The position numbers and the translations under genes are program-made. A stretch of 64,000 nucleotides of DNA, from assembly GCA_000146465.1 (NCBI GenBank), contig CP001945.1; one strand, given 5' to 3'. Each line of letters begins with the position of its first letter. Within the stretch, counting starts at the first letter, position 1. The notes beneath the pieces were generated by a model that ran no database searches, was not told where the DNA came from, and was given only the letters and a program-made list of their open reading frames with translations. Of this stretch, positions 2 through 45,177 are shown in pieces.

Positions 2-1522
2 TTTGTCCCTGAGATGTTCTGGACTCTAATGTTTAAGACTAAAAGTAAGAAACTTGGAGATGAATTTACGTGGAGAAGAGGATCTGTCTTTGATAAGAAC
101 TGTGTTATATGTTTCCATAGAAGCTTGTCTGGAGAAAGTGCTAGGATAGTGTTAAAAGAAGTGAGAGAAAGAACCAAATACAAGCCGCTTCCTCTTAGAA
201 CTGTTGAGCTTCAGAAGAAATGTTCATCGTACTTCAAGCTAAGTGGACACAAGGTGATGGAGATTGCAGAGGGGCTGTACAACAAAGGATATATAAGCTA
301 TCCCAGGACAGAGACAGATGCATTCGATAGGAAGTTTGACTTCAAGTACATATTGGGTAAGTTATGTAAGGATTCGAAGGTAGGTGAGCATGCTGAGAAG
401 TTGATTGGGGGGTTTGATTATCCGCGGAATGGAAGAAACAATGACATGGCACATTCTCCAATATATCCACTAAAAGAAGGGACAGGACTTTCAGGAAAGG
501 ATAGAGATATCTATGACTTTATTTGTAGAAGGTTTCTTGGATGTATATCAAAGGATGCCAAGGGCCTTGAGACACGGTATGAACTGAAGATTGGATCTGA
601 GATGTTTGATCTGAAGGGGATAAGGGTGGTCGAAAAGAACTATCTGGAGGTGTATTACTATGATAAGTGGGATGATAAAGAAGTCAGTGACTTTCAGATG
701 GGAGAGATGGTTTCGGGGGATCTTTGTATCTCGGAGGGCAAGACAACACCTCCAAACTATCTTACCGAGGCCGAACTGATAAGCCTGATGGATAAGAATG
801 GAATAGGAACAGATGCAACGATACATGAGCATATTCAAAAGATTCAAGAGAGAGGATATGCAATCAAGGTTGGAGAAGAAATAAGGCCTCTGGAGCTTGG
901 GGCAGCTCTTATTGGAGGATATGAAAGGTTTGGATTGAATGTTGGCAAGCCTGAGCTTCGGAAGAGCCTAGAAGGTAATCTCAAGAAGATATCGGAGGGC
1001 CGGATGAGTGGAAGAGAAGTAGTGAAGGAGGGAATTATAGCCTATAGAGACATATATGCCCTCCTTAAAAGAAATATCGAGGAATTTGTCTGTATTCTTA
1101 GACAGGGTATTGAAAATGATACAAAGCGGCTGGGAGTGGAGAAGAGAAAAAAGGCGGAAAGGGCAGAACAAGGAAAGACAAAAGCAGAGGGTTTCAAGGG
1201 TCTCAACCCAAAGAAAGCTCTGAACAAAGAAGGAGAAAAGAAAAGAGTGGAATGTGATTGTAAAGACGAAGCCAAGGTGCTGAAGGTAAAGAAGGGAGAC
1301 AATACTGGAAAGGAGTTCTATTGTTGTGGAAAGACAGCAAAAAGATGTTATTTTTTCCAGTGGTGTGACAAGGAGGAAACCAAGAGAGACGAGGAGCTGA
1401 AATGCTTCTGCGGGTTTGAGCCCCAATTGCTTGTAGCAAACACAGAAAACAATAAAGGAAGGAAGTTCTTCAAGTGCAAGAAAGCATACAAGCCATGTAA
1501 GTTCTTCCAATGGGAGGAATGA
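2..1522 (+). CDS. TOP3: DNA topoisomerase III (type IA), C-terminal part; 5' end lies outside the window. Two GRF-type zinc fingers at the C-terminus
   Basis: The open frame runs from the window edge. It contains the topo IA motif YISYPRTETDAFD and two C-terminal copies of Cx(n)C...FF(K/C)C...CxFFQW (GRF zinc finger). It ends at a stop at 1520-1522. Confidence 0.8.
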   Translation, partial: FVPEMFWTLMFKTKSKKLGDEFTWRRGSVFDKNCVICFHRSLSGESARIVLKEVRERTKYKPLPLRTVELQKKCSSYFKLSGHKVMEIAEGLYNKGYISYPRTETDAFDRKFDFKYILGKLCKDSKVGEHAEKLIGGFDYPRNGRNNDMAHSPIYPLKEGTGLSGKDRDIYDFICRRFLGCISKDAKGLETRYELKIGSEMFDLKGIRVVEKNYLEVYYYDKWDDKEVSDFQMGEMVSGDLCISEGKTTPPNYLTEAELISLMDKNGIGTDATIHEHIQKIQERGYAIKVGEEIRPLELGAALIGGYERFGLNVGKPELRKSLEGNLKKISEGRMSGREVVKEGIIAYRDIYALLKRNIEEFVCILRQGIENDTKRLGVEKRKKAERAEQGKTKAEGFKGLNPKKALNKEGEKKRVECDCKDEAKVLKVKKGDNTGKEFYCCGKTAKRCYFFQWCDKEETKRDEELKCFCGFEPQLLVANTENNKGRKFFKCKKAYKPCKFFQWEE

Positions 1523-3162: not shown

Positions 3163-4584
3163 ATGGCTACAAAGATTGAGAACGATGTCAAACCACGTTT
3201 GAATGTTTGTTTTATCGGACACGTAGACTCTGGAAAGAGCACTACGGTGGGAATGCTTGCCTATCAGTTAGGAGCGGTTGACAAGAGAGAAATGGAGAAG
3301 TATGAGAAGGAGGCAGCTCTCAACAACAAGGAGTCGTTCTATCTTGCATACTTAACCGACAAGACCGAGGCAGAAAGAAAGAGAGGAATTACAATCACAA
3401 CCACTCTTATTGCTCTCTCTACAGAGAAGTTCGATATCAACGTTCTTGATTGCCCCGGGCACAAGGACTTTGTGAAGAACATGGTGGCAGGAGCATCGCA
3501 GGCAGATGTGGCAGTAGTGATTGTTCCAGCATCTGGATTTGAGTCCTGTGTTGGGGTTGGAGGGATGTTGAAGACACACATTATGATTTCAGGGATTCTC
3601 GGATGCGAGAAGCTGATTATATGTGTCAACAAGATGGACGAGATTGCCGAGGACAAGAGGAGGATGGAGAAGTTCAAGGAGGTATCTGATGAGATGCGTA
3701 GAATTGTCAAGAGGTGCCACAGAGATTCAAACCCTATTGTCCTGCCTATATCTGCGTACAAGGGAATCAACCTGACGAAGAAGGGAGAACACTTCAACTG
3801 GTTCAGTGGATGGAAAGAGAAGGAAGGATCGGAGGTGATACACACTCTTGAGGAGGCTCTGGATTACCAGAAGGTACCTGAGAGACACAACGACAAGCCT
3901 TTAAGAATGCCGATCACCAAAGTTTGCTCTATTGCAGGAATTGGTAAGATTTTCACAGGGCGTGTGGAGTACGGAACCATCACACCAAATCTTAAGATTA
4001 CAATTCAGCCGGCAGGAGTGGTGGGAGAGACCAGGTCTGTGGAGATCCACAACAAGCCAAGGCCCATGATTCCATGTGGAGAGAACTGTGGAGTTGCTCT
4101 CAAGGGAGGAGTTGTTGGGGAAATCGACAAAGTGGATGCAGGACACGTGATTTCGGCCAACGATGAGAACAAGGCCATAGCATATCCTGGGGCAAAGATC
4201 AGAACAATTGTTGTTGCCAGGCCAAAGGGATTGTCGGTAGGATATACTCCACAGATCAACTTTGGAAACTGCCACTCTCCAGGAAGGATTGCCAAGATTA
4301 TTTCAAGAGTAGTTGGTGGAAAGGAAGTACAGGAGAACCTTGAAAACATTGGAAATGGACAGACGTTTATTGGAGTTGTTGTTTTCCAGAAGCCGTTGGT
4401 TGTCGATAGGATGGACAAGTTCCAGAACCTGGCAAAGTTTGCACTTATGGACAGTAACGGGGTTGTGGGAATTGGAAATGTCATGGAGCCTCTTACCAAA
4501 GACCAGCTTCTCAAGGAGTACGGGATTGACATAAATGAAGATCCCAAGGCAGCAAAAAAGGCAGCCGGTAAGAAGAAAGCATAA
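3163..4584 (+). CDS. TEF1: Translation elongation factor 1-alpha
   Basis: G-domain motifs GHVDSGKST, DCPGHKDF and NKMD. The ORF begins directly with the GTPase domain. The 473-aa length and lysine-rich C-terminus (KAAKKAAGKKKA) fit EF-1alpha. A TATA-like element and GGGCCCC lie just upstream of the ATG. Confidence 0.88.
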   Translation: MATKIENDVKPRLNVCFIGHVDSGKSTTVGMLAYQLGAVDKREMEKYEKEAALNNKESFYLAYLTDKTEAERKRGITITTTLIALSTEKFDINVLDCPGHKDFVKNMVAGASQADVAVVIVPASGFESCVGVGGMLKTHIMISGILGCEKLIICVNKMDEIAEDKRRMEKFKEVSDEMRRIVKRCHRDSNPIVLPISAYKGINLTKKGEHFNWFSGWKEKEGSEVIHTLEEALDYQKVPERHNDKPLRMPITKVCSIAGIGKIFTGRVEYGTITPNLKITIQPAGVVGETRSVEIHNKPRPMIPCGENCGVALKGGVVGEIDKVDAGHVISANDENKAIAYPGAKIRTIVVARPKGLSVGYTPQINFGNCHSPGRIAKIISRVVGGKEVQENLENIGNGQTFIGVVVFQKPLVVDRMDKFQNLAKFALMDSNGVVGIGNVMEPLTKDQLLKEYGIDINEDPKAAKKAAGKKKA

Positions 4585-4636
4585 GTAATCTTTCTTCCAA
4601 AAGAAGTATCTTTATTAAACTTCTTTTATTAATTTC

Positions 4637-5527
4637 TTATATTCTTTTTAGTGCTTTTGTAAGGAAATGGTTCATCTCCCGTCGGCCTTTGCTAAGGAAA
4701 GCCTCCATTTCAACCTTCTTGCCTGTCTTCTTAAGAAGCAACGGGTCATTGGTAAAACATTCGAACTCCATAAGTCTGTCAACCATCTTCAGGTCGTATT
4801 TATTCAGGCCTGCAAGGCCGTCCTGATGGATCCTCTTGTCTAGGATGTCTTCTGCACAGACGCCAATCCGCACAATAGTTTCAACTCTTGTCTCTGGAGC
4901 CTCTCTACTCCCATACTTATAGACACAAAAGATGTGAATACCAAAGGGATCAAAGTCAAAGAGTCCTCCAATGGCTGTCTTGTGTTCTATCATCTTCAAC
5001 AATAGCATAGTGTTCTTGCATGGATATCCTCTCCCACACACAAGTAGCACACCTTCAAGATATCTTTCCCTTTCAATTCCAGATGCTATTCTTTGTAATA
5101 TTGTATCTTTTTCAACAACCAAAACCCTCTCGTAACTGCAGAACACCTCAACTATGCCCTCCATGTCTGGAATAAGCTGTGGGTTGTTCCTACATGAGGA
5201 CATCTCTATTATGTCTGGGCCCTTAACAAAAGCTAGCTTTCCGATAAAGGTTCCTTTGAGAGTATTTCTTATTCTAAGATCGCTTTTTGAAACTCGAAGC
5301 TCTGAGGCGATGGTAGATATCAACCTTTTGACAGCAGTCTGACTTTTGAATATATTCACAGCCATGTAAAAGATTTCTCTTTCATTTCTGGTGATTCCTA
5401 GTTCTTGCATCTCCATGATTATCTCATGGAGCCTTATCCTCATTACAAGAGTTCTCGACTTCAGCTCTGTCAGGAGCTTTAGTGCATTGTGCTTTAGCGA
5501 TGTGGATATCTCAGAAGAAAAGGCCAT
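4637..5527 (-). CDS. SPO11: Spo11 / topoisomerase VI-A-like meiotic DSB transesterase
   Basis: 5Y-CAP motif REIFY (catalytic Tyr), Toprim motifs VVEKDTILQRI, CGRGYPCKNT (the GxGxPD equivalent) and FDFDPFGIHIF (DxDPxG). Confidence 0.7.
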   Translation of the reverse strand: MAFSSEISTSLKHNALKLLTELKSRTLVMRIRLHEIIMEMQELGITRNEREIFYMAVNIFKSQTAVKRLISTIASELRVSKSDLRIRNTLKGTFIGKLAFVKGPDIIEMSSCRNNPQLIPDMEGIVEVFCSYERVLVVEKDTILQRIASGIERERYLEGVLLVCGRGYPCKNTMLLLKMIEHKTAIGGLFDFDPFGIHIFCVYKYGSREAPETRVETIVRIGVCAEDILDKRIHQDGLAGLNKYDLKMVDRLMEFECFTNDPLLLKKTGKKVEMEAFLSKGRREMNHFLTKALKRI

Positions 5528-5575
5528 TCTATCGCCAAAGCATAAACCCAGAATAACGAATCCCTGGGATATTGC

Positions 5576-6082
5576 ATGATATATACCGCAGAGATATACG
5601 AAAGAGTTAGGAAGCTCTTAGGAGATTTGTGCATGGTGCAGACCGGGGACAATCCAGTGGCATACAAGGTGTCAAAGTACAAATCAAAGAAGCCTGTGTA
5701 TCTTGTTGAAGGAAATGGAGGAGAAATGTATCTGATGGGGGATCACGTCTTCGAGCTTGAGCGTAGTGGGTTTGATGTAGGGGTTTCAAAGGAGAAAGAG
5801 GTATTGGTTATGCTTTTCAAGTTCAGCACTAGAAGTCTAGAGGGAGGCAGAAGAGTTGCAAGAGAATCTCCAGAGGAAGGGCAATTTATAGAGGTGGATG
5901 TAGGTCCGGTGACATGTGATGGAAGAAGAATGGGAACCCTGATAGCATCAAGTATTCCACAGGGTTTATGTGCATTGTCTAGTGTGCTAAAAAGATTTAT
6001 TCGGATTGATACCAACGGGTATTCAGAAGGAGGATTTGAAAAGTTGCTTGTGAGGGTTCTTAGTTCCAACAGGGTCCTATGA
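5576..6082 (+). CDS. Hypothetical protein (168 aa); weak PUA/Nip7-like resemblance only
   Basis: Intact ORF with even composition in a tight intergenic context. The motifs YLVEGNGGEMYLMGDHV and GTLIASSIPQGLCALSSV vaguely resemble Nip7/PUA proteins. This is not enough to name it. Confidence 0.35.
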   Translation: MIYTAEIYERVRKLLGDLCMVQTGDNPVAYKVSKYKSKKPVYLVEGNGGEMYLMGDHVFELERSGFDVGVSKEKEVLVMLFKFSTRSLEGGRRVARESPEEGQFIEVDVGPVTCDGRRMGTLIASSIPQGLCALSSVLKRFIRIDTNGYSEGGFEKLLVRVLSSNRVL

Positions 6083-6254: not shown

Positions 6255-7223
6255 ATGCTTCTACTTCTTACAATTGTTGGAATAGTGGTCTGCAGGGAAA
6301 ATGCAGTGATTCTGATTCTCTGTAGGAACAGCGACAAGAATGGCATAACAGAAACGATAAAGAATTTCGAAGAGGTGTTCAATAGAAACTTCGGATATCC
6401 TTATGTATTTCTGAACGATGAGGAGTTTACCGAGGACTTCAAGAAAGCTATAAAGGATGTTACATCTAATAGTGTTGAGTTTGGAAGACTCGAGCCCGAG
6501 GAGTGGGAGATTCCAAAGTGGATAGATATGGAGAAGGCAAAGGAGGAAATGAAGAAAATGGAAGACAGGAAAATCATCTATGGAGGGTCTCTATCATACA
6601 GGAAGATGTGCAGGTTCTTTTCTGGATTCTTCTACAGGAACAAGCTTGTCCAGAAGTATGACTATTATTGGAGGATAGAGCCAGATGTAAAGTTCCTGTG
6701 CCAGATAGAGTATGATCCGTTCACATATCTTCGGGAGAACAACAAACAGTATGGGTTTGTGATATCCTTGGTTGAGTTTATGGAGACGATTCCCAGTCTG
6801 TTTGGAGAGGTGATAAAGTTTGCAACACATAACCTGAACTTGATCAAAAAGGCCAATGGAAATAGATTCATACTAAACAAGGACGGGTCATACAACGGAT
6901 GTCATTTTTGGTCCAACTTTGAAATAGCAAACTTTGGATTCTTTAGAAATGAAACATACCAGAAGTACTTTGATTGGTTAGACAAGGCTGGGGGGTTTTT
7001 CTACGAAAGATGGGGTGATGCGCCTGTGCACAGTATTGCAGCATCTCTCTTCCTGGATAAGGATCAGATCCACTTCTTCAGCGACATTGGGTATGAGCAT
7101 CCTCCATTCCAGCATTGTCCAAGAGAGGCGTCCATGAGATCGAAATGCAAGTGCAGTATTTCGAACTCGTTAGACTTTTCTCCAAATTCGTGTCTGGGCT
7201 TGTACATAAAGTCTCTTTTGTGA
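6255..7223 (+). CDS. Glycolipid/glycoprotein alpha-1,2-mannosyltransferase, KRE2/MNT1 (GT15) family, type II membrane protein
   Basis: N-terminal signal-anchor [15 protein letters not shown]15 motifs are conserved throughout, including [21 protein letters not shown] and [12 protein letters not shown]. Confidence 0.85.
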
Positions 7224-7303
7224 ATGAAGAATGCCTGGAAGTATATTCGATAATAATAAATTGGTACGACGGATATTTTGGTTTATTTTTGACCCGATAC
7301 GAG

Positions 7304-10078
7304 ATGGATTCTGAAAAGGAAGCTTTGAAGGAAAGGAAGAAAATGGAGAAGGAAGAGAAGAAGAGGCAGAAGCTGGAGAAATTCCTGGCAAAGAAAACAC
7401 AAGAAATGAATGTTTCCAAGCCAAGGAAGGAGTACAAGGGAGATGGCTATGACCCGCTAGGGATTGAAGGGAAGTGGTACGAGTTCTGGGAGAACAACGA
7501 GCTTTTCAAGCCTATAGAGGGAAAAGAGAAATATGTAATTCCGATTCCTCCGCCAAATGTCACAGGAAACCTTCATATAGGACATGCAATGATGGTTTCA
7601 ATTCAGGATACTTTGTGTAGATACAAGAGGATGTGCGGGTATGAGGTTTTGTATATTCCTGGGACAGACCATGCAGGAATAGCCACACAGAATGTTGTAT
7701 TGAAGCAATTGGAAAGAGAAGGAGTTGTCTCTGACAGAGAAGGGTTTCTTAAGAAGGCCTGGGAGTGGAAGGATAAGCATGGATCAAGAATATATGAGCA
7801 ATTTAAGAGATTAGGGACGAGTGTAGACTTCAGCAGGGAAAGATTTACCCTAGATCCAGGGATGAACGAAGCTGTTGTTGATGCGTTTGTAAAGCTCTAT
7901 GAAAGAGGCCTTATATATCGAGAGCTGAAAATTGTGAACTGGTGTGCCAAGCTGTCGACAACCATAAGTGACTTGGAGGTTAATCACGAAGAGGTGATGG
8001 CCAGCACAGATCTACAAGTAGATGGAGGAAAGTATGAGTTTGGGGTAATTTATCATTTTAAGTATCCCATGACAATAGATAAGGAATTTTCAGGAGATTA
8101 TCTTTCGCTACCGGCAATTGAAGTGGCAACAACAAGACCGGAAACGATTCTTGGAGACACGGCGATATGTGTGAATGGAAAGGACGAAAGATTTGGAGCC
8201 AGAGGAATAAAGGAGACTTTTGGGGATGTTCCTGAAGGAAGCAAGCTCTATTGTGTAAATCCGTTGACCAGTGAGGTGATTCCTGTTGTCTTTGACGACT
8301 ATGCAGATATGAGCTTTGGAACTGGAGTGGTGAAAATAACACCTGCACATGATGCAAATGACTTCGATGTATCGAGGAGACATGGACTTCCTTGCAAGAT
8401 TGTGTTTGATGAAGAAAACAGGGTAATCATTGAGGGAGAGTTCAAGGGGCTAAAGAGATTTGAGGCAAGAAAAGCTGTTATTTCAAAGCTTACAGACATT
8501 GGCTTGTTTGTTGGAAAGAAGGAGTATCCTCAGGTGATTCCAAGATGTTCCCGATCTAATGACATTATAGAGCCTATTGTCAAGAGTCAATGGTGGATGG
8601 ACTGTAAGGAAATGGCAAATAAGGCTATTGAGGCAGTTAAAGAAGGAAGAATAAGAATACTACCTGAAGGGGCAGAAAGGCGATGGTATAAATGGCTTGA
8701 GAATATCAGGGACTGGTGTCTATCGAGGCAACTGTGGTGGGGGCATCGAATACCTGCATACAGAATGCCTTCTGGAAAATGGTATGTTGGAAGAAGCAAG
8801 GAAGAAGCATTTTTGAAGATGAAGAATGAGTGTCCTGAGGATGGATGTAGTATTGATGAGTTTGAGCAGGACGAGGATGTTCTAGACACATGGTTTTCTT
8901 CGGGCCTATGGCCGTTTGCCATTCTAGGATGGCCCAAAGAGACAGAAGACCTTCAAAAGTACTATCCTAGCACCTTGCTTGAAACAGGCAGCGACATTCT
9001 CTTCTTCTGGGTGGCGAGAATGGTGATGCTTGGAATTGAACTGACCGGAAAAGAGCCTTTCAGCCAAGTGTTTCTCCATGGGATAGTAAGAGATGCACAT
9101 GGAAGGAAGATGAGCAAAAGCCTTGGGAATGTCATTGACCCGATTTTTGTGATTGATGGATGTCCTCTTTCAAAGCTGATTTCGACAATGAGAAGCGGGA
9201 ATCTCGATGAGAGGGAGATGAAGAGGGCAGAAGAAGTCCTACGAAAGGATTTCCCAAACGGAATACCAAGGTGCGGGGCAGATGCTCTTAGATTTACTTT
9301 ACTTTCCTACACCTCTGGAATGAAGGATATCAACCTTGATGTACTGAGGGTGGAAGGATATCGAAGGTTTTGCAACAAAATATGGAATGCTCATAGATTT
9401 GTGAAGGCAGCAGTAGATGAGGCCATTGAAGAAAGCCTTAGAGGGTCCACTTGTAAGAAGAAATACGAGAAGTATATTCTTCCGGCTGATAAGCTACAGA
9501 TTCGTTCTGGAGAAGGACCCGTTGAATGGATTCTTAAAAAAAGGAACGAGTTAATAGAAATAAGCCAGAGAATGATTGATTCATTCAACTTCATGGGAGC
9601 CACACAAGCAATCCATCAGTTTTTTATTTACGATCTGTGTGATGTCTTCATAGAGGTTGTTAAGAAAAACAAGAGCGAAAGATACATAGGGGTACTATTA
9701 AGCGTGTTTATCGATTCGATGAAGATACTCCATCCATTTATGCCATTTATCACAGAAGAGGTGTTTTCTGATTATTTCGATAGTTCTATTTCCACTTCAC
9801 CATATCCTAGGACAGATGGGTCTAACCATGAAAACAAGTTTTCTGGGACACTTCAAATTATAAGGCATGTAAGGGCAAAGGCAGAGTCAAAGGGATGGCC
9901 TAGGGTTGCAGTAGGGATTGCCCCAGGAGAAGATGTTGACCTTGCAGACCTGGAGTTTGTCCGTCTGCTTTGCAAAAAAATTATCGAATTTAAGGTAGTA
10001 GAACATTCAGAAAGCTCAGAAAGCCATCTGTATGAGAAGGTAGGGGATTCTGGAGTATTTGTGAGCCAAGCAGATTGA
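7304..10078 (+). CDS. VAS1: Valyl-tRNA synthetase (class I aaRS) with a Lys/Glu-rich N-terminal extension
   Basis: [14 protein letters not shown] (HIGH), [12 protein letters not shown] (KMSKS), and editing and anticodon-binding regions conserved with ValRS. The ORF-track ORF starts at 7115, but the conserved protein begins at the ATG at 7304 ([13 protein letters not shown]...). Confidence 0.9.
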
Positions 10079-20730: not shown

Positions 20731-21864
20731 TTGTTCTTGGTTTCACATGTTTACCCCCTTGAACACACCACGCCAATGAGCATAAACTTAGGTGACATAT
20801 TTACAATATCCGGGAGAAGACAATCACAAAAAGAGGATAGATACACAAAGAGTACAATGGGAATACACACAAATGTTCTGGCCAGCATAAGGCTTATGAC
20901 ATCTTCCCGAAGCACTCGGATAGAAAACAGACATATTGACACGTCTCCACATAGGATACTGGATGCACCAGGTATGCTGGACGACTATTACCTCAACTTG
21001 CTCGACTGGAGCACCACAAATCTTCTGGTAATAGGGCTGGGAGAGTCTGTCTATGGATATAATGCCGTTGACAAAAGTGTAGTCGATATCCATTCTGGGG
21101 AGAATTATGTGTCATCGGTAAAAAGCAATGGAAACATCCTTTGCATTGGTACTTCAGACGGAGCGATGCGCCTTGTAGACACCTCGGTGAATAAGGAGAT
21201 AAATACAATAAGAAATCACCAAGCCAGAGTCTCATCGTTGAGTTGGAATGGAAACATAATAAGTAGTGGAGACAAAGCGGGAAAGTTATGCAACTTCGAC
21301 ACAAGATGCGGAAAAATCTCTATGGTTGGAGCCCATTCCCAGGAAATATGTGGCCTGGCATGGAGTGCAGATATGAAATATCTTGCTAGCGGGGGAAATG
21401 ATAATGTTATAAGAATATGGCAATTGGGAAACAACAATTCGCAAACGCTTTTAGGGCATAAATCTGCTGTTAAGGCTCTTGCGTGGTGTCCTTGGAGATC
21501 GGGGATATTGACTTCTGGAGGAGGAGCAAAGGATATGACCATAAAGTTTTGGGATGTTGCCGAAAATAGGCTGGAAAGAAGCATAAGCACACAGTCTCAG
21601 GTGTGTACCCTCACATATCTCCCCAAGTATAAAGAAATCATCTCCTCGCACGGATACAGTGAAAACGACATTCGAATATGGAAGACTTCCACAATGAATC
21701 TAATCTCTTCCTTCGGGAAGCACGGGTCGAGAGTTCTTCACGTAGCTCTAAGTCCTGATGGATCGGAACTGGCCTCGGTATCTGCAGATGAAAACTTGAA
21801 GTTCTGGAAGATATTCAACACAGAAAAAGCATCTGTAAGAAGAGACAGCCTCTCGTTTAGGTAA
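20731..21864 (+). CDS. CDC20: APC/C co-activator of the Cdc20/Cdh1 (Fizzy) family, WD40 propeller
   Basis: Signature RILDAPGMLDDYYLNLLDWS followed by seven WD repeats (…LASGGNDNVIRIW…). The start may be an internal Met. Confidence 0.8.
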   Translation: MFLVSHVYPLEHTTPMSINLGDIFTISGRRQSQKEDRYTKSTMGIHTNVLASIRLMTSSRSTRIENRHIDTSPHRILDAPGMLDDYYLNLLDWSTTNLLVIGLGESVYGYNAVDKSVVDIHSGENYVSSVKSNGNILCIGTSDGAMRLVDTSVNKEINTIRNHQARVSSLSWNGNIISSGDKAGKLCNFDTRCGKISMVGAHSQEICGLAWSADMKYLASGGNDNVIRIWQLGNNNSQTLLGHKSAVKALAWCPWRSGILTSGGGAKDMTIKFWDVAENRLERSISTQSQVCTLTYLPKYKEIISSHGYSENDIRIWKTSTMNLISSFGKHGSRVLHVALSPDGSELASVSADENLKFWKIFNTEKASVRRDSLSFR

Positions 21865-29616: not shown

Positions 29617-30378
29617 ATGAATTTAATATCCGCTTCCGATAGAGATATTATCGTCCGCATGGATGAGACTTTGATAGTGAGGGATGTCTTCAGCGGCACC
29701 ACAAGGAAAATGACTGCGCCTCCTCTGATATCCTTTATGTCTGGAAAGTATTTAGTTGACAAAGAAAAAAATTTGCATGTTGTTGACGGACCTGTTCTTA
29801 GGAACGCTTCCAAGCTAAACAGAAACATCTTTTGTTTAGTAGAGCATGAGGGAACTGCATATGTTGCAGATAGGTTTGGAGACGTCTACAGAATTGAAAA
29901 TGAAGGATGCAAATATGTGCTTGGAACTCTATCGTATTTGACGGGAATGGCTATATACAACGGAAGGATTCTATTAAGTGATAAGTACGGAAGAATTCGC
30001 ATCAGTGAAATGAATGGAAGAATATTGGACTATCGCTTTGGCTGCGACTCTATAGAATCTTTGGAATGTGTTAATGGACTCCTGATTTCAATAAGCAATA
30101 AGAATATGGTTCTATATGACGAAGAGTGTTTTCCCAGATGTACGTTTAAGCTTCCCGAAGGCATAAGAGTTATGAAGACCATTACTAAAGGAAAGAACGA
30201 GCTTGTAGTCATTTGCTTGAATTCCTATTTCTTGTTTAAGATAGAGAAAAATAGCATTGGACTTGTTTCTCATGTGAAAGAATCCATAGTTGATGGGGCC
30301 TGCATCGGAGATCTCTTTTACAAGGTGCTTCCGGATCTCACCGTTGTGGATTGCCAGGGCAGGATCTTCTATGAATAA
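29617..30378 (+). CDS. Hypothetical protein (253 aa), possibly beta-propeller-like
   Basis: Intact ORF with repetitive GR(I)L…D…G strand-like segments. No diagnostic motif. Confidence 0.4.
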   Translation: MNLISASDRDIIVRMDETLIVRDVFSGTTRKMTAPPLISFMSGKYLVDKEKNLHVVDGPVLRNASKLNRNIFCLVEHEGTAYVADRFGDVYRIENEGCKYVLGTLSYLTGMAIYNGRILLSDKYGRIRISEMNGRILDYRFGCDSIESLECVNGLLISISNKNMVLYDEECFPRCTFKLPEGIRVMKTITKGKNELVVICLNSYFLFKIEKNSIGLVSHVKESIVDGACIGDLFYKVLPDLTVVDCQGRIFYE

Positions 30379-30402
30379 ACATTAGTTAATCTTGGTACAG
30401 AA

Positions 30403-31164
30403 TTGATATTCTCGACTATTTATCACTTCTGTCTTCAACACCCTATGGGTAATAGCAAAAGGCATAAGACTGAAAGCTCCCCTAACATCGTGGAAAGTAC
30501 AGAGAGCGGCACCTATTCGGAATCAGTCTCCTTGGAATCTTCATCCGACGAAATTGTTTACGAGGTGGCAGATCTCTCGGTATCCAACTGGACGGATGTA
30601 TCTATACTTATGGACCAGTCCAGGATGTTTCCCTCTTCGGAAGAGTTTCTTTCATTATTTGTCAATTCCAAGGTCTTAGTAAGCGGGGATCTTATTCTCT
30701 CCTTTTGTGGTTTTCTTGAGGTGCCCAAGGTCCTTGAAATGATACACAAGAAGCTCAGGGAAGCTCTTAGCTCTTTGATTTCGACGGCAGAAAAGAACAA
30801 AATCAAAAGTAGCGAGGTTTATATATTCTATATGGAAAGGGCAGCCAATCTTCCTTTGGAAATGATTTTGAGCCTGTACAGGAGCCTTTCCTTAGGAAGA
30901 TTCAAGTACATGATATTTGTCTCGAGAGTTAAGCCGTGTGGAAAAAGAGAGGTAAAGAATCTCATGGAAGACTTCAAGGAGTATAACCCAGTGGACTTGA
31001 GCCATATCCCTGTGCGAGGAGAAGAGATCTTGCTACTATCATCCCACATAGCTAAGAAGCAGATTGGAATGAACAATAATATATTCCGACTGTTTTTGAT
31101 GGACAGGAAGATGTTTGAATCGTTTATAAAGCTCTTCGAAAAAGAAATCTCCAAAAGCATATAG
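30403..31164 (+). CDS. Hypothetical protein (start possibly at Met 30445, MGNSKRHK)
   Basis: Intact ORF with an acidic/Ser-rich N-terminus. No recognisable domain. Confidence 0.4.
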   Translation: MIFSTIYHFCLQHPMGNSKRHKTESSPNIVESTESGTYSESVSLESSSDEIVYEVADLSVSNWTDVSILMDQSRMFPSSEEFLSLFVNSKVLVSGDLILSFCGFLEVPKVLEMIHKKLREALSSLISTAEKNKIKSSEVYIFYMERAANLPLEMILSLYRSLSLGRFKYMIFVSRVKPCGKREVKNLMEDFKEYNPVDLSHIPVRGEEILLLSSHIAKKQIGMNNNIFRLFLMDRKMFESFIKLFEKEISKSI

Positions 31165-31225
31165 AATAAATAATGATTGACCAAATACAATTCTTATTTT
31201 CTATTTCCCTCTTGTTTCCCTGGGA

Positions 31226-32029
31226 ATGGATGAAGCTGTTGAGAAACTAGAACTAGTTTTGGAGAGCAAAGTTGAAAATCTTCCTGAGAAGATAATGGAT
31301 GCATTAGAAGACCTTGTGCAGGCATCTTTGGAATGTTCATCAGAAGAAATGGTAGAGTACGAGCTAGACGAAATTCTTATTAATGCCTTTGATAAGACAT
31401 CGCATAAGGACCACAAGAGACTTATGGAGATGCTTCTGGACCTCATGTCATGCATGCGAGATCCTCGTAACATCTATCCAGCAGTAGAGAAGTACTTTAG
31501 TCCTGAGTGCAACTTTTCGATGGATGCCGCCAAAGTAATTTTTGTGATGAAGAGGGACTTTGGATTTGAGTTTGATGGCTTTCTTAGCACTCTCCTGGAT
31601 TGTATTAGACCCGAAAACATTGAAAACGATACTGAGAGGAGACTGTTTTTTATTCTAATGGTTTTAGATAATGGTTCTGTCCCACTTGTTGTAACCAAAG
31701 CATTTGTTAAGAAGCTCTGTAATGTCTCTCTGCAGGTCAAGTCCTCATGCTGCCACAAGATACTTTGGGGAGTCCTATGGATTATGAGATTCCATCCAAT
31801 GGCATATGCGATGGCAAAGAGAGAAAGCTTTGAAAAGGATCTTGAATGGAATGTGTCTGTTACGATTAACCAATTTCAACCGTATCTATTTGAGCTTGAT
31901 ATATTAAGTGAATCTCTAAAAGGAATCCAAAAAGTTGTTAGTCTCATCAAGCGCGAGGCAATGGATGCCAAAAACAGACCAAAGCTCCTATCCCTGGACA
32001 ATGTTATTTTTCCAAAACTAGAGATTTAG
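31226..32029 (+). CDS. Hypothetical helical protein (267 aa)
   Basis: Intact ORF with a predicted helical repeat character. No recognisable motif. Confidence 0.4.
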   Translation: MDEAVEKLELVLESKVENLPEKIMDALEDLVQASLECSSEEMVEYELDEILINAFDKTSHKDHKRLMEMLLDLMSCMRDPRNIYPAVEKYFSPECNFSMDAAKVIFVMKRDFGFEFDGFLSTLLDCIRPENIENDTERRLFFILMVLDNGSVPLVVTKAFVKKLCNVSLQVKSSCCHKILWGVLWIMRFHPMAYAMAKRESFEKDLEWNVSVTINQFQPYLFELDILSESLKGIQKVVSLIKREAMDAKNRPKLLSLDNVIFPKLEI

Positions 32030-32056
32030 ATGTCTTCCCAAAAATAAAGAATTCAC

Positions 32057-32830
32057 TTAATCTTTTTGTGGCTGCTCCTGCAGCTTCCTCATAATGTATT
32101 TTCTTGCTCTATCTTTAATTCTCAATTTTTTCTTTGTTTCAGATGGCCTGTCTCCATTTCTTTGGAGGTCTCCTTGGATCTTTTTGACTATTCTCTTCAA
32201 AGAAGATACACTTATGATCTCCCCAAGATTGAGCCTTCTGTGGGAGTCTGGTAAGTTCTCGTCTCTAATGAAGTATGCTATGCAAAGACAGTAGGAGCTC
32301 GTACACTTGTTGCTTTTGGATATTGAAAGAAACTCCTCTAGTAAATGATTACCTTTAAGACCTTGTGAGAGACAAAAATCTCTAACTCTGCTGAAGATTC
32401 TAGAGAGATATTCCGAAGACAGTTCTACATATTCAAACTCTCTCAAAAGAATTCTCTTGAGCCCCAGCCCCGTCCTTTCTGTAAGAGGCTTGAGATCGCT
32501 ATATGATATTGGATACTGGTGTCTTCTAAGTACATTGTAAGTTATTGCCAGTATCTTATCGTTGGCTCCAATTCTGTGTTCAAAATCCTTTGTTCTCAAG
32601 AGGAGTTTAACCTCTTCGGAATAGCCTGAAACATTCAGAATCCCAAGTAAAGACTCTACATTTCTGCTATATCTCTCTGCTTTGTCTACAACGAAATACT
32701 TCATTCTCCTTGGAATTACAGGCCTGTGAAAAGTATATGATGCCATGTAGTTGTCGCAATCTGATTCCAAGCACAATCCACAGGACGTACAAGCACCATT
32801 GTCAATCCATGGGTGGCTGCAACCCTCCAT
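32057..32830 (-). CDS. TFIIB-type zinc-ribbon protein with a cyclin-like region (TFIIB/Brf/Rrn7 family; subtype unresolved)
   Basis: N-terminal Cys4 ribbon CSHPWIDNGACTSCGLCLESDC. A helical cyclin-fold-like body and a basic C-terminus follow. Confidence 0.35.
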   Translation of the reverse strand: MEGCSHPWIDNGACTSCGLCLESDCDNYMASYTFHRPVIPRRMKYFVVDKAERYSRNVESLLGILNVSGYSEEVKLLLRTKDFEHRIGANDKILAITYNVLRRHQYPISYSDLKPLTERTGLGLKRILLREFEYVELSSEYLSRIFSRVRDFCLSQGLKGNHLLEEFLSISKSNKCTSSYCLCIAYFIRDENLPDSHRRLNLGEIISVSSLKRIVKKIQGDLQRNGDRPSETKKKLRIKDRARKYIMRKLQEQPQKD

Positions 32831-40449: not shown

Positions 40450-42252
40450 TCAAACATAGACTGTTGTGACAAACTGCTCCTCAGACTCTTTGCACACCTT
40501 TCTTTTCTTCCCTTCCACCCCCTTTCTGCAGTTTGGCTTCTTCTTATATGAGTAAACTGTATTATATACAGTCTTATGGCCTCCCTTGTTTTTTGTTTCT
40601 CTCTCCACAGTCTTTACTACTGTTTTTGTCACCGTCTTCACCAAGTCACTTGCCATTTCTAAGTGAGAGCTTTGCTTGGGAGTTTTTGTGCATTTTGTTT
40701 CTTCCAAATCCTCAATTAACACCTTTCTAACTAATGGAAGGAGCTCTGCTATTATGTCTTGCCTACCTGTGTTCATAAACCCTTGAGTATCCGATAATGA
40801 AGCAGCCACAGAGGAAAAGACCTCTTTCTTTTCCGAAGTCTCAGGAACACTGACGGTGAGACACTTTTCCGTACATATTAGAGAAATCGAGGCTGGCAAA
40901 GAGATACTGGCAGAAACCCCTTCTCCCTTTTGGGATCCAGGATTTTGGCTTGGGTCACTTCTAGAAGCTGTCTGTGTTGTAACTTCCTCTGTCTTTGTAA
41001 CCGTAAGGACGGAAACAGTTGGTTTAGTTATTGTTCTATATACCACACTAGGAAATTCAGAAGTACTTGGATCACTACTAGAGGAATCTATTGTTTTCGT
41101 ACTCTTCTGAGTCTCTTCATTCCTTTTCGATGTCTCACCAGAAATAATTGGAGCTCTCATGGATATACTTTCCTCCGGCACCTTCGGAATTTCCTGGCCA
41201 TGCGGAGCCTTTGTAGATATGATTGTGGAATACTGCGTCTGTACAACTGTCTCTGTCTTAACGCTACTCTCTGTCTTGGTTGAGGTTGAAATCTCCTTGA
41301 CAGTTGTTAGCTTGTAATTGATAATGGGAACTTCACTCTTGACTGTTGTTGTCACTTCTCTGTACAACGTAATGGGTTTTTCGACACTGACAGTCTTATA
41401 AAACACTCGGGTGACTGTCACAACAGTGGGCTCGCCCTTTTCCTTTTCATCATCTTCAAAACCTTTTTCTGCTTCGGAGACTTCATCTATTTTGTCATCG
41501 TCCAGTGAAGAGTCCTTGAGCTTGGAGCGCTTTACTGAAGAAGAAATAAGGGTAGAGCCCTCCCCTTCCTTTACAGGAGTCTTACGGATATTGTCGTCGT
41601 ATTTTCTTTGCTTCTCAGGTCTCTCAGAGCGTGTCAATTGAGAAACCTTTTCTGAAATCACTGGAATCTCCACCGTCTTGAAAATAGTTTTCGTATCCTC
41701 TTTTTTAGTTTCACAGGTTTTACCATCCTCGGTCACGTGGGTATCTTTCTTCTGCTCGTCCCTTGAGATTGTTGCCGGGTGCTCTGAGACCGTCTCCGTC
41801 TTTGTTTCAATTACTGTGATGCTTTTATAAGATACTAATGGTACCTCTTCGGTTTTGGTTGCCGGTGCAGAATTACTCTTATTTGTATCTTTGTGATGGA
41901 TCACATGAATGAAGGGAATCGGAGGTTCGGAATTCCTTCTATATGAATCCATTGGGCCGTTAGAAGGTCCTTCTCTCATCCATTCAAGCTCTTTGCACTC
42001 GTCTCTACAATCTTCCTTCCTACAGTTCATGCATTTATTCACATCTTTGTAGACAACAGCCATGCACCTTCCTTTGTTACAACTTGAATCGCGCACTATT
42101 GGCAAATTAAAGCTCTGAAGATATTCATCGTATTCCCGTTTGGGAAGATACACGGAGTTCAAGCAGTCGTTCAAACTTATTCCATATCTCTGGCATCTAC
42201 TCGTTAGCTCGTCCTGGATGGCATAGCATCCCATAATCATCAGAATTATCAT
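40450..42252 (-). CDS. Secreted cysteine-rich, Thr/Ser/Val/Lys/Glu-rich repetitive (mucin-like) protein; candidate spore-wall / polar-tube-type protein
   Basis: Hydrophobic signal-peptide-like N-terminus MIILMIMGCYAIQD. Eight Cys in residues 20-90. About 430 aa of low complexity (TVVTVTRV, KTVTKTVVKTVERETK). A basic C-terminal patch KKKPNCRKGVEGKKRKVCK. Confidence 0.5.
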   Translation of the reverse strand: MIILMIMGCYAIQDELTSRCQRYGISLNDCLNSVYLPKREYDEYLQSFNLPIVRDSSCNKGRCMAVVYKDVNKCMNCRKEDCRDECKELEWMREGPSNGPMDSYRRNSEPPIPFIHVIHHKDTNKSNSAPATKTEEVPLVSYKSITVIETKTETVSEHPATISRDEQKKDTHVTEDGKTCETKKEDTKTIFKTVEIPVISEKVSQLTRSERPEKQRKYDDNIRKTPVKEGEGSTLISSSVKRSKLKDSSLDDDKIDEVSEAEKGFEDDEKEKGEPTVVTVTRVFYKTVSVEKPITLYREVTTTVKSEVPIINYKLTTVKEISTSTKTESSVKTETVVQTQYSTIISTKAPHGQEIPKVPEESISMRAPIISGETSKRNEETQKSTKTIDSSSSDPSTSEFPSVVYRTITKPTVSVLTVTKTEEVTTQTASRSDPSQNPGSQKGEGVSASISLPASISLICTEKCLTVSVPETSEKKEVFSSVAASLSDTQGFMNTGRQDIIAELLPLVRKVLIEDLEETKCTKTPKQSSHLEMASDLVKTVTKTVVKTVERETKNKGGHKTVYNTVYSYKKKPNCRKGVEGKKRKVCKESEEQFVTTVYV

Positions 42253-42524: not shown

Positions 42525-43562
42525 ATGGAAGAATACACACTCTGCTCCTCAAGTACCGAGCAAGGCGAAATACCAGTCATTCACATCAAAAGATTCAAGG
42601 AGGCCCCTCCATTGTTTCCAAGAAACAAGTCTCAGCTGCAGTATATGTATCTCCCAAACAAGTCCCTATTTATCGGGCCAAACACCATTCCAAGGTCTAG
42701 TGATTATCAAGTAAATGTCCTTACAACCAAGCTTAAAAAGAGACTCAAGCATGATCTTTCTCATCCGTTTCTGTGTCTTTCGATGAATTCCGATAGATCA
42801 TTCTTTGAAGGGAGGTTTACCTTTGTCTCCACGGTCCAAATCCCAGAAAGTGTTGAAGAGATGTGTTTTGTCAAAGGTAAGGAGAGGATAGTTCATGTCA
42901 AAGAAAAAACAGATGTAAATACAGACGTGAGAAAAGAAATAAAATTCGACCACATAAAGGACAAACAGAACGATTCATACAAAGATGTCTGCCAGGACTT
43001 TTTGCTTGGAAAGTTACTTGAAGGCATTGGGGACAAAAAGATAAATATCATCATTAGAGACTCCACCATCAATAATATTCTGTCAAAAGAAGCATATATA
43101 CACTTTTATGTAAAGAAGAAGGATGAAAAACTGTACATTGTTTTTGACGAAGTTTACACTAGAGAAGTCAAGTATTACGACTATCTCTCGAAGTATGGGG
43201 AGGAGGTTGTTCGATCTCTGAAATCTTCGGAAACCCGTATGTATTCCAGTTCGGAAGCAGTGGTTGTTGTGTATTCATCAACTCTCTTCTACGATTCCTC
43301 TGGGCTTCATAGACTGTTTAGTGGAATTGACGTCGAAAAGTCCATCGACATGGTGGTAAATATTGAAGATGTAAGAGCTGTAAAAAGCTCAGGATCCTTA
43401 GGAGACGAGCTGAAGGTGCTTTTTGGAATTAAGTTTGAGGAGGGAGAATATGTCCTTAATGATAAGAAGATATATGTGTTGGAGCCAAGCGGGGAAAAGT
43501 TTAAATTCAATGGAGTTGTGTTTACTGATTTTATGGACTCCCAGGAGCCTATAAGCGATTAA
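42525..43562 (+). CDS. Hypothetical protein (346 aa from Met 42525)
   Basis: The long ORF 42399..43562 begins inside tRNA-Pro. The first plausible start is MEEYTLCS at 42525. No diagnostic motif. Confidence 0.4.
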   Translation: MEEYTLCSSSTEQGEIPVIHIKRFKEAPPLFPRNKSQLQYMYLPNKSLFIGPNTIPRSSDYQVNVLTTKLKKRLKHDLSHPFLCLSMNSDRSFFEGRFTFVSTVQIPESVEEMCFVKGKERIVHVKEKTDVNTDVRKEIKFDHIKDKQNDSYKDVCQDFLLGKLLEGIGDKKINIIIRDSTINNILSKEAYIHFYVKKKDEKLYIVFDEVYTREVKYYDYLSKYGEEVVRSLKSSETRMYSSSEAVVVVYSSTLFYDSSGLHRLFSGIDVEKSIDMVVNIEDVRAVKSSGSLGDELKVLFGIKFEEGEYVLNDKKIYVLEPSGEKFKFNGVVFTDFMDSQEPISD

Positions 43563-43589
43563 TTTGTTTGAGGTTTATTTATTGAGGAA

Positions 43590-43880
43590 ATGGAAAGCAA
43601 AGTAAAGGTGATTTCTTCGGACAACAAGGTGTTTGTTCTTGACTATGACGTCTCCATACAAAGTCAAACACTTCGAACATTTTTTAGCCGGCCAGAAATG
43701 TTCCTAGAATCTATCTCCAGGGAGGTTAAGCTTCCGGTCAAATCACGGCATCTGAAGAGGATTGTCGAGTTTCTGGAATTTAAGTATCTTTCAGACTCAG
43801 ATAAGGAACCTAAGGAGTTTAAAGTTAGTGACTCAGAAGCTTTGGAACTTCTGGATATTGCTGTATATCTCAAAATCTAG
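43590..43880 (+). CDS. ELC1: Elongin C (Skp1-like BTB-fold adaptor)
   Basis: VKVISSDNKVFVLDYDVSIQSQTLRTFFS…EALELLDIAVYLKI is colinear with Elongin C (MYVKLISSDGHEFIVKRE…ALELLMAANFLDC). Confidence 0.75.
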   Translation: MESKVKVISSDNKVFVLDYDVSIQSQTLRTFFSRPEMFLESISREVKLPVKSRHLKRIVEFLEFKYLSDSDKEPKEFKVSDSEALELLDIAVYLKI

Positions 43881-43932
43881 GGAAATCGAATAAACACTTT
43901 ATTTCTACATCAGAGACATAATAAACCTATGT

Positions 43933-44130
43933 CTAGACATTGTTACTCTCTTCTGAAAATTCGGTATTCTTTTGGTTGGAAAGGGAACTAAAGTCCTTGA
44001 ATTCTTTGGACTCCAATATAGCCTCTGTTAATTCGTTCTTTGATATTATGTTAGATACACCCATGGACTCCACTAACTTGTAGATCGACTCAGGGTGTTC
44101 GTCGAATCCAGGGAGCTCATTGTATTTCAT
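43933..44130 (-). CDS. Small ORF (65 aa), possibly UBA-like helical; doubtful
   Basis: Short acidic ORF immediately downstream of the GID-subunit gene. Only a weak UBA-like pattern (IYKLVESMGVSN…AIL). Confidence 0.2.
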   Translation of the reverse strand: MKYNELPGFDEHPESIYKLVESMGVSNIISKNELTEAILESKEFKDFSSLSNQKNTEFSEESNNV

Positions 44131-44166
44131 GGGGTAGTAAGGCTTTATGATTATCCGGGCCTTCCA

Positions 44167-45177
44167 CTAAATTCTAAGCCTCAAAATATTTTCATACTTG
44201 GACATCTCTGGACAGTAGGGGCATTTGAAGGAGTTCAAAACACCTTCCTGAGAAAGCACACTTGCAGCTTCTAAAGATATTACATGGCCACACTCAAGCA
44301 TCACAGGAATATTTCCATCGATGCAGAGTGTTTTTAGCACCGGGCATATGAAGAGAGAGTGGTAATTTCTTCCTTTCTCCATCTTTATCTCTATAGGAAG
44401 AGCTGGATCATCTTTATCGAAAAGCAAATTTCCAGAGCTGGAAAGCTGAAGAAAGGCAGAAGTTCCAGCTTCAAATAGCTCTTGGAGATAGCAACCGTTT
44501 GGCATCCCGCTCACTTCCAGATACTTCGATTTGAAGTTTTCTATAAGCCTTTCTCTACTTCTTTCCAGAGACTCCTGAATATTTCCAGGATTCACCAGAA
44601 ACTTAAGAAGCGGCTTGACGTCTTGGATATATGTTGGGACAAACGACTTTAGTTTCCCGAAGCATAGTTTAAGAGCTTCGTCGTATCTCCCTCCATTTAT
44701 TAGTAGTAGGAACTCATGGGACACAAGATAAAGTTCAAGCTCCTTGCTTGGATGGCTCTCAAGAAACTCCTCCAAAAGCCCTGTGGAATTTCCCAGCACT
44801 TCGGAAACAGTTCTTTTGAATCTGACATAATCATCTCTAACCTTCATCACCTCTTCTTTTCCGTCTTTTATTTCGGATATGAGCTTGTCAACAATATCAC
44901 CACAGTCGTTTTCAAGTAAGTAGTACACTATTAAGCAGGTTACTGTTTGCATGCTGTTTGGATACATCTGGTTTCCTACCTGTATGTCCGACTCTGTAGG
45001 TTTGGTGTCCGAGGGAAGTAAATTCTTCCAAAGCTTAACAAGACTAGCTTCTATGTTGGGAAGGTTGTTAATCTCCAGGTTGTTTTCTCGAGACAATGTG
45101 GCTTGTATCTCGCTTATAATATGGATGGACTTATCCCTAAGATGCTGATAGTCTATTCCATGTCTATCACCTATCAT
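44167..45177 (-). CDS. GID/CTLH E3 ligase RING subunit (Rmd5/Gid2 or MAEA/Fyv10-like)
   Basis: Degenerate RING-Gid FICPVLKTLCIDGNIPVMLECGHVISLEAASVLSQEGVLNSFKCPYCP, preceded by a CTLH/CRA-like helical region. Confidence 0.65.
   Translation of the reverse strand: MIGDRHGIDYQHLRDKSIHIISEIQATLSRENNLEINNLPNIEASLVKLWKNLLPSDTKPTESDIQVGNQMYPNSMQTVTCLIVYYLLENDCGDIVDKLISEIKDGKEEVMKVRDDYVRFKRTVSEVLGNSTGLLEEFLESHPSKELELYLVSHEFLLLINGGRYDEALKLCFGKLKSFVPTYIQDVKPLLKFLVNPGNIQESLERSRERLIENFKSKYLEVSGMPNGCYLQELFEAGTSAFLQLSSSGNLLFDKDDPALPIEIKMEKGRNYHSLFICPVLKTLCIDGNIPVMLECGHVISLEAASVLSQEGVLNSFKCPYCPEMSKYENILRLRI

Follow-up and report, generated by a model that had tools for sequence, protein, structure and literature searches.

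Spo11 of yeast, SPO11 of mammals and subunit A of topoisomerase VI from archaea (Top6A) are among the closest described relatives of the gene considered here, an open reading frame (ORF) at positions 4637..5527 (minus strand) of a 64,000-nucleotide stretch of contig CP001945.1 (assembly GCA_000146465.1), from the microsporidian Encephalitozoon intestinalis ATCC 50506; the whole stretch is called the window below. In yeast Spo11, the N-terminal tail contacts Rec102 and Rec104, the K74KKK hairpin contacts DNA, a pair of helices bundles with the Rec102 stalk, and R266, a residue called invariant in Spo11/Top6A, forms a hydrogen bond with a DNA phosphate (Yu et al., PMC11746154). Among the microsporidia, Spo11 of E. 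cuniculi was reported in 2005, according to the citation of Ramesh et al. in PMC1851970, and between 2005 and 2008 its retention was argued to indicate cryptic sex in that species, a point on this gene that was repeated by Lee et al. in 2010 (PMC2866331). Malik et al. (2008; PMC2488364) counted the Encephalitozoon protein among the Spo11 members verified by phylogeny, on a tree rooted with eukaryotic Top6A.

Our analysis indicates that the ORF is very probably the single-copy Spo11 orthologue of E. intestinalis, used in a rarely observed meiotic or meiosis-like recombination. The assignment to the Spo11/TopoVI-A family, put forward in the original prediction from the letters of the sequence, was obtained in agreement by Pfam, by sequence search of the Protein Data Bank (PDB), by an alignment of 93 members, drawn from microsporidia, animals, yeasts and further eukaryotes together with four sequences of archaeal type, and by fold search. 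When the 296-amino-acid protein was searched against Pfam, residues 135-283 matched PF21180 (TOP6A-Spo11_Toprim; E=4.9e-19, 69.4 bits, against a curated cut-off of 24.1 bits) and residues 29-86 matched PF04406 (TP6A_N; E=1.7e-11, 44.2 bits, against a cut-off of 26 bits). Toprim families other than Spo11 (DUF2399, JetD_C and DUF7281), which are distant Toprim relatives, stayed, like all remaining Pfam matches, below the cut-off with E values of 0.02 or higher and were rejected, and the archaeal Top6A equivalogs of NCBIfam matched weakly, far under their cut-offs. A single-sequence search of the PDB returned S. shibatae Top6A (5e-9) and yeast Spo11 (3e-7), with Tyr54 placed on yeast residue 135. 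With a profile of ten microsporidian orthologues, yeast Spo11 came first (8urq, 8.1e-17, yeast residues 105-383), followed by archaeal Top6A at 1.2e-14 and weaker. An AlphaFold2 run with the ten microsporidian sequences gave a predicted local distance difference test (pLDDT) value of 71.6, below 60 in the Toprim half, and was replaced by a run with the 93-sequence alignment, whose model reached a pLDDT of 94.6 and a predicted template modelling score of 0.89. Foldseek comparison of this model with the PDB yielded ten matches at E <= 1e-3, all of them Spo11 (8urq, 8uru) or Top6A (1d3y, 9o0g, 9o8p, 2zbk, 9o7o, 2q2e), the next match having E=0.12; the top one was the yeast Spo11 core complex (8urq_A, E=1.4e-15, template modelling score 0.68 on the query).

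Within the family, comparison of sequence scores favours the meiotic-type Spo11 lineage over Top6A. When 1.84 billion representatives were searched exhaustively with the microsporidian profile (hmmsearch), about 45 short microsporidian-type proteins ranked first. They were followed at ~113-136 bits by animal and yeast proteins to which their sources give the name meiotic recombination protein SPO11; the clusters concerned hold SPO11 of humans and other mammals, an SPO11-like protein of a copepod and a protein of a budding yeast. Archaeal-type Top6A scored ~70 bits. Mammalian SPO11 (a 396-amino-acid form and a 358-amino-acid isoform), which is among the nearest non-microsporidian representatives, is 28% identical over 271 residues (E=6e-28) and has the motifs in the same order, but it has 137 residues before the catalytic tyrosine rather than 53, and the canonical GKGxPDxNTR with its arginine. 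Yeast Spo11 (398 amino acids; 8URQ/8URU) is ~22% identical and shares the winged-helix plus Toprim architecture, whereas its 25-residue N-terminal extension and its K74KKK beta-hairpin wing have no counterpart in the microsporidian protein, and its Ski8-binding QREIFF is EMEAFL in E. intestinalis, which also has methionine for R266. Archaeal Top6A (M. jannaschii 1D3Y, S. shibatae 2ZBK, M. mazei 2Q2E) has the same fold (Foldseek E values from 1e-14 to 7e-11) and the same catalytic residues, and the crystallised chain of 1D3Y, with ~290-301 residues, has nearly the same extent as our 296-residue protein. Unlike the latter, however, it carries the N-terminal all-beta region PF20768, and it forms a stable dimer which performs strand passage with the Top6B ATPase; it also scores lower than eukaryotic Spo11. 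PF20768 was not found in the ORF even at E<=1, the alignment having a gap there, and among the 93 members it was confined to the four archaeal-like ones.

The gene and its elements have the following positions in the window.

4637..5527, minus strand: complete Spo11 coding sequence, identical to ADM11398.1 of E. intestinalis ATCC 50506
5468..5524, minus strand: N-terminal alpha-helix, residues 2-20, from the secondary structure of the AlphaFold2 model and the 93-member alignment
5270..5443, minus strand: 5Y-CAP/winged-helix core, PF04406 TP6A_N, residues 29-86, with R50, Y54 and Q63
5366..5368, minus strand: codon tac of the catalytic Tyr54, aligned with yeast Spo11 Y135 and present in 93 of 93 members
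4679..5125, minus strand: Toprim domain PF21180, residues 135-283, from Pfam and the fold match
5111..5113, minus strand: codon gaa of the metal-binding Glu139, equivalent to yeast E233, in 93 of 93 members
4949..4957, minus strand: codons gac ttt gat of D191-F192-D193, the metal-binding DxD, equivalent to yeast D288/D290; D191 in 93 and D193 in 92 of 93 members
5006..5008, minus strand: codon atg of Met174, at the position of yeast R266, from alignment and sequence
5528..5575, no strand: 48-bp intergenic spacer shared with a divergent neighbour of 168 amino acids (5576-6082), the sole room for a promoter
4611..4630, minus strand: two AATAAA hexamers (4630-4625 and 4616-4611) past the Spo11 stop codon, read from the sequence

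The three motifs on which the original prediction was built are present, REIFY at residues 50-54, CGRGYPCKNT at 164-173 and FDFDPFG at 190-196, and the catalytic Tyr54, Glu139 and Asp191/Asp193 (codons gac at 4957-4955 and gat at 4951-4949) are intact when properly aligned; neither a substitution of the tyrosine or of the DxD residues nor an assignment to another Toprim family was found. By comparison with the yeast structure (PMC11746154), R131/Y135 correspond to R50/Y54, Q144 to Q63, K173 to K91, E233 to E139 and D288/D290 to D191/D193. Throughout the alignment R50, Y54, E139, K140, G167, D191 and G196 are invariant, with D193 present in all members but one; R50, Y54, E139, K140, D191 and D193 do not vary among the ten microsporidian orthologues, and Q63 and K91, positions of DNA contact, are retained in E. 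intestinalis and conserved in the alignment. Spo11 is a transesterase derived from a type IIB topoisomerase. By analogy with the described relatives, two copies of the protein would form hybrid active sites on DNA, in which Tyr54 of one subunit would attack the phosphodiester backbone and Glu139, Asp191 and Asp193 of the other would hold the catalytic Mg2+. The predicted outcome is a double-strand break (DSB) with Spo11 attached covalently to the 5' ends, to be processed further by Mre11/Rad50 and Rad51. A partner subunit and the life-cycle stage at which Spo11 acts we infer as well. The process served would be a meiotic or meiosis-like (self-fertilising or parasexual) recombination, rarely observed, in a diploid and highly homozygous parasite; E. 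intestinalis is diploid with exceptionally low heterozygosity (PMC10845963).

Conservation of the gene argues that it is maintained. Orthologues of 299-306 amino acids, one in each species, were found in E. cuniculi, E. hellem, E. romaleae and Ordospora pajunii, and in these four the order class I tRNA synthetase, KTR mannosyltransferase, 167-aa gene, Spo11, EF-1alpha and actin forms a conserved block; none of the species examined has a disrupted ORF. The E. cuniculi protein (ECU04_1110, 303 amino acids) is 63% identical to that of E. intestinalis and has the same motifs in the same block. Codon alignments were analysed by the Nei-Gojobori method, and since synonymous sites were saturated (pS 0.6-0.9) in most pairs, usable ratios are few and approximate; nevertheless, pN (0.14-0.37) was far below pS (0.60-0.90) in every pair. 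Where dS could be estimated, dN/dS was 0.08-0.13, the cleanest pair being E. hellem and E. romaleae (dN 0.151, dS 1.21, ratio 0.125). Spo11 evolves faster than KTR and, within Encephalitozoon, faster than EF-1alpha, and at a rate similar to or lower than that of the 167-aa neighbour. Substitution patterns thus show clear purifying selection on Spo11 in the Encephalitozoon/Ordospora clade, and a dN/dS of about 0.1 argues that the gene is not a decaying relic. Amino-acid identity of 63-75% within Encephalitozoon, together with retention of every catalytic residue, would not be expected of an unconstrained relic.

Two observations were made on the genes of this block. EF-1alpha of Encephalitozoon is only 48-50% identical to that of Ordospora pajunii, compared with 75% for the nearby KTR, and is therefore unusually fast-evolving; its product has 473 amino acids in ATCC 50506 and 472 in other E. 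intestinalis assemblies. In Vavraia culicis, KTR (VCUG_01482), SPO11 (VCUG_01483) and CDC20 (VCUG_01484) are adjacent, and in E. intestinalis KTR (6255-7223, plus strand) lies one gene from Spo11, with CDC20/Fizzy (20776-21864, plus strand) ~15 kb away. The proximity of KTR and SPO11 in both species suggests that their linkage is ancient in microsporidia.

The step from an intact Spo11 to a functional meiotic or parasexual cycle, taken in the original prediction, holds in part. The presence of the gene argues for meiosis or parasex, short of demonstrating either, as the cases of V. culicis and Giardia make plain. The supporting statement, that programmed DSB formation is the only role of Spo11, is sound for the meiotic Spo11 lineage, but does not extend to SPO11-3/Top6A, a non-meiotic paralogue (PMC12203943). 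An inventory of other meiosis genes, suggested at the same time, was already available from Desjardins et al. (2015; PMC4435813, Supplementary Data 5). Present in E. intestinalis are SPO11 (Eint_041090), HOP1 (Eint_020840), HOP2 (Eint_010870), MND1 (Eint_101570), RAD51 (Eint_110690), MSH2 and MSH6, while REC8, RAD21, DMC1, MSH4 and MSH5 were scored absent. Sources disagree about the cohesin pair Rec8/Rad21 in Encephalitozoon, which was present according to Malik et al. (PMC2488364) and lacking altogether according to Desjardins et al. (PMC4435813); Cuomo et al. (2012) found Rec8 only in Nematocida (PMC3514677).

Several points weigh against a meiotic role of this protein, and two of them lie in its structure. 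The first is that the position of yeast R266 is occupied by Met174. Over the 93 sequences this position holds arginine or lysine in 47 and another residue, mostly leucine, isoleucine, methionine or valine, in 46, and the division very largely follows that between non-microsporidian (basic) and microsporidian members (hydrophobic in nearly all), the motif GKGxPDxxTR having become GKGYPC(K/R)NT(M/L/I/V) in microsporidia. A basic residue is nevertheless found near the motif, as arginine or lysine two residues after the threonine in many microsporidia, or two residues before it in Encephalitozoon and Ordospora (K171 in E. intestinalis), and might compensate for the lost contact. As the loss of the arginine is common to species with cytologically described meiosis (Astathelohania), it is a trait of the lineage and does not betray decay of the gene in Encephalitozoon.

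The second structural point is that a ~45-residue beta segment between the first two helices is missing from the E. intestinalis protein, together with the N-terminal tail. Helix 7-21 aligns with the helix which precedes the beta 'wing' of the mammalian, yeast and archaeal proteins, and may, by analogy with these, be one of the two paired helices to which the B-like subunit binds; the alignment suggests that the partner-binding pair was probably kept and the accessory elements lost. Loss of the tail and of the wing in front of the winged-helix core accounts for the shortness of microsporidian Spo11 in general. The catalytic tyrosine is preceded by 43-57 residues in most microsporidia (53 in E. 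intestinalis, 5368-5527, minus strand) and by 75-80 in Nematocida, compared with ~84-190 in the remaining eukaryotes and in archaeal-type members; a few sequences, unnamed or of a longer form, are intermediate. The length of 296 amino acids, described in the original prediction as minimal for the family, turned out to be a normal microsporidian size. All the named members among the top profile matches are short microsporidian proteins; examples of the short type are those of Vairimorpha bombi (277), Cucumispora dikerogammari (285), Pancytospora philotis (303), Astathelohania contejeani (306) and Nematocida (319-331 amino acids). Full-length relatives of 269-285 amino acids are thus smaller, the lower figure coming from unnamed representatives.

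The remaining points concern the approximate nature of the selection estimates, given above, and the biology of the organism. E. cuniculi is described as strictly monokaryotic and no sexual stage has been observed in Encephalitozoon (PMC10845963). The absence of DMC1, MSH4, MSH5 and REC8 from the inventory implies that any meiosis would be non-canonical. Edhazardia aedis, a species whose sexual cycle is defined, up-regulates SPO11 in the meiotic stage, but in V. culicis SPO11 is present and was expressed in no sampled stage (PMC4435813). A full-text literature search on the locus tags ECU04_1110 and Eint_041090 returned no expression data.

It could be supposed that microsporidian Spo11 is a distinct, stripped-down form, which in Encephalitozoon works with a different partner or with none, in a non-canonical process of break and repair such as automixis or homogenisation of genome copies. 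We consider this unlikely, although not to the degree that applies to the explanations below.

Another explanation would be a relic, in which the ORF came down intact from ancestors that had sex but is no longer used by Encephalitozoon and has no current function. The lack of an observed sexual cycle and the loss of DMC1, MSH4, MSH5 and REC8 are in line with it. The silence of V. culicis SPO11 led the authors of that study to raise the possibility of a relic themselves (PMC4435813), and Malik et al. (2008) allowed for a 'secondarily asexual state'. A functionless gene, on the other hand, is difficult to reconcile with dN/dS ratios of ~0.1 across Encephalitozoon, where synonymous sites are saturated, or with the invariance of all catalytic and most DNA-contact residues in the Encephalitozoon/Ordospora orthologues and the 93 family members. 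An intact ORF at a conserved syntenic position in every species examined speaks in the same direction, and so does the genome itself, which has purged most dispensable genes and reduced its spacers to ~50 bp. We therefore regard a relic as very improbable.

Programmed breaks might also be made in a process which involves no reductional meiosis, such as nuclear exchange of the Giardia type, parasexual recombination of the Candida type, or a break-induced gene conversion by which the two copies of the genome are homogenised. Giardia uses homologues of Spo11, Hop1 and Dmc1 outside meiosis (PMC2488364), and for Nematocida the possibility of a parasexual cycle was put forward by Cuomo et al. The set of genes in E. 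intestinalis would suit such a process, as the crossover-specific MSH4/MSH5, the meiotic recombinase DMC1 and REC8 were scored absent while HOP1, HOP2, MND1 and RAD51 remain, and so would the exceptionally high homozygosity of this diploid. However, selfing with ordinary meiosis explains the homozygosity equally well, and several sexual organisms likewise do without DMC1, MSH4 and MSH5. Moreover, microsporidia with the same short type of Spo11 have cytologically described meiosis (e.g. Astathelohania), and there is no direct evidence for a process of this kind in Encephalitozoon. The chance that it accounts for the gene seems to us slim, marginally below that of a relic.

That the gene encodes subunit A of a true topoisomerase VI, acting with a Top6B ATPase in decatenation or relaxation of DNA during vegetative growth, is hardly credible: fold and catalytic residues are indeed common to Top6A and our ORF, a non-meiotic Top6A paralogue is kept in plants and some protists (PMC12203943), and GenBank and UniRef use the names 'DNA topoisomerase VI subunit A' and 'DNA topoisomerase (ATP-hydrolyzing)', but these names are generic family-level labels which UniRef puts also on some mammalian SPO11 entries, and profile scores, the best PDB match both by sequence profile and by fold, the absence of PF20768 and the tree of Malik et al. 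(2008), with the Encephalitozoon protein among Spo11 orthologues, all stand on the side of Spo11.

Spo11 with a role in rarely observed meiotic or meiosis-like recombination thus remains our preferred reading. The gene is closely flanked by its neighbours. The ORF comprises 296 codons, from an ATG to a TAA stop. Upstream, the reading frame stays open for 30 codons after the preceding stop, and these contain not a single ATG, GTG or TTG; N-terminal extension through an upstream start is therefore ruled out and 296 amino acids is the longest unspliced product. The promoter probably lies in the 48-bp spacer at 5528..5575, while the pair of AATAAA hexamers at 4611..4630 may represent polyadenylation signals. 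On that side a spacer of 52 bp separates Spo11 from the convergent EF-1alpha gene (3163-4584, plus strand). Three neighbouring proteins match exactly the adjacent GenBank entries ADM11397, ADM11399 and ADM11400.

Pfam scans of ~50 other ORFs of the window recognised housekeeping genes only, with no other meiosis-specific gene and no recognisable partner of Spo11 among them. A WD40 protein (59322-60206) was considered as a Ski8 candidate and rejected, as its matches are confined to WD40 proteins of a generic kind. About 20 ORFs of 96-600 amino acids (e.g. 29617-32830, 40450-42252, 42525-45177 and 51055-52593) had no Pfam match at 1e-6 to 1e-8; no paralogy was found among these unannotated ORFs of the window, so they do not constitute a tandem family. 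Such ORFs are usual for microsporidian genes that have diverged strongly or are specific to a lineage. A type IA topoisomerase resembling Topo III (14-1522, plus strand) has two GRF zinc fingers and a PF01131 match that begins at profile position 66, and the 5' end of this ORF is thus probably located beyond the start of the window. The longest ATG-initiated ORF of the class I tRNA synthetase (7145-10078, plus strand) overlaps the 3' end of KTR by 79 bases; its Pfam match starts at residue 110, and the real start is therefore probably a downstream ATG.

Neither the gene nor the argument drawn from it is new, although the original prediction presented the former as a find. Its product has exactly the sequence of ADM11398.1, 'DNA topoisomerase VI subunit A [Encephalitozoon intestinalis ATCC 50506]'. 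In GenBank it has four protein accessions for E. intestinalis, and it was seen on five contigs. Eint_041090 of the published inventory is presumably the same as ADM11398.1, since the database search revealed only one E. intestinalis member of the Spo11 family; the tag also belongs to the same-numbered chromosome as the E. cuniculi orthologue. The identification is correct and ordinary, both the gene and the inference of sex being already in the literature.

Sex in microsporidia, especially in monokaryotic human pathogens such as Encephalitozoon, is of importance for the spread of virulence and drug-resistance alleles. Spo11 is a standard item of evidence in this debate, and as it has been known since 2005-2015, finding the gene again leaves the question of sex unmoved. 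The replaced arginine and the compact architecture of microsporidian Spo11 are small points, undescribed in the literature examined. A compact Spo11 of this type, with about 270-330 amino acids and lacking the beta wing and an arginine of the R266 type, could nevertheless serve as a minimal Spo11 for biochemistry. Cleavage by yeast Spo11 has reportedly been reconstituted in vitro. The same was achieved for mouse SPO11 in the SPO11-TOP6BL complex (PMC11922769). Should a non-canonical Spo11 process, unlikely as we hold it, operate in Encephalitozoon, it would account for the extreme degree of homozygosity found in these diploids.

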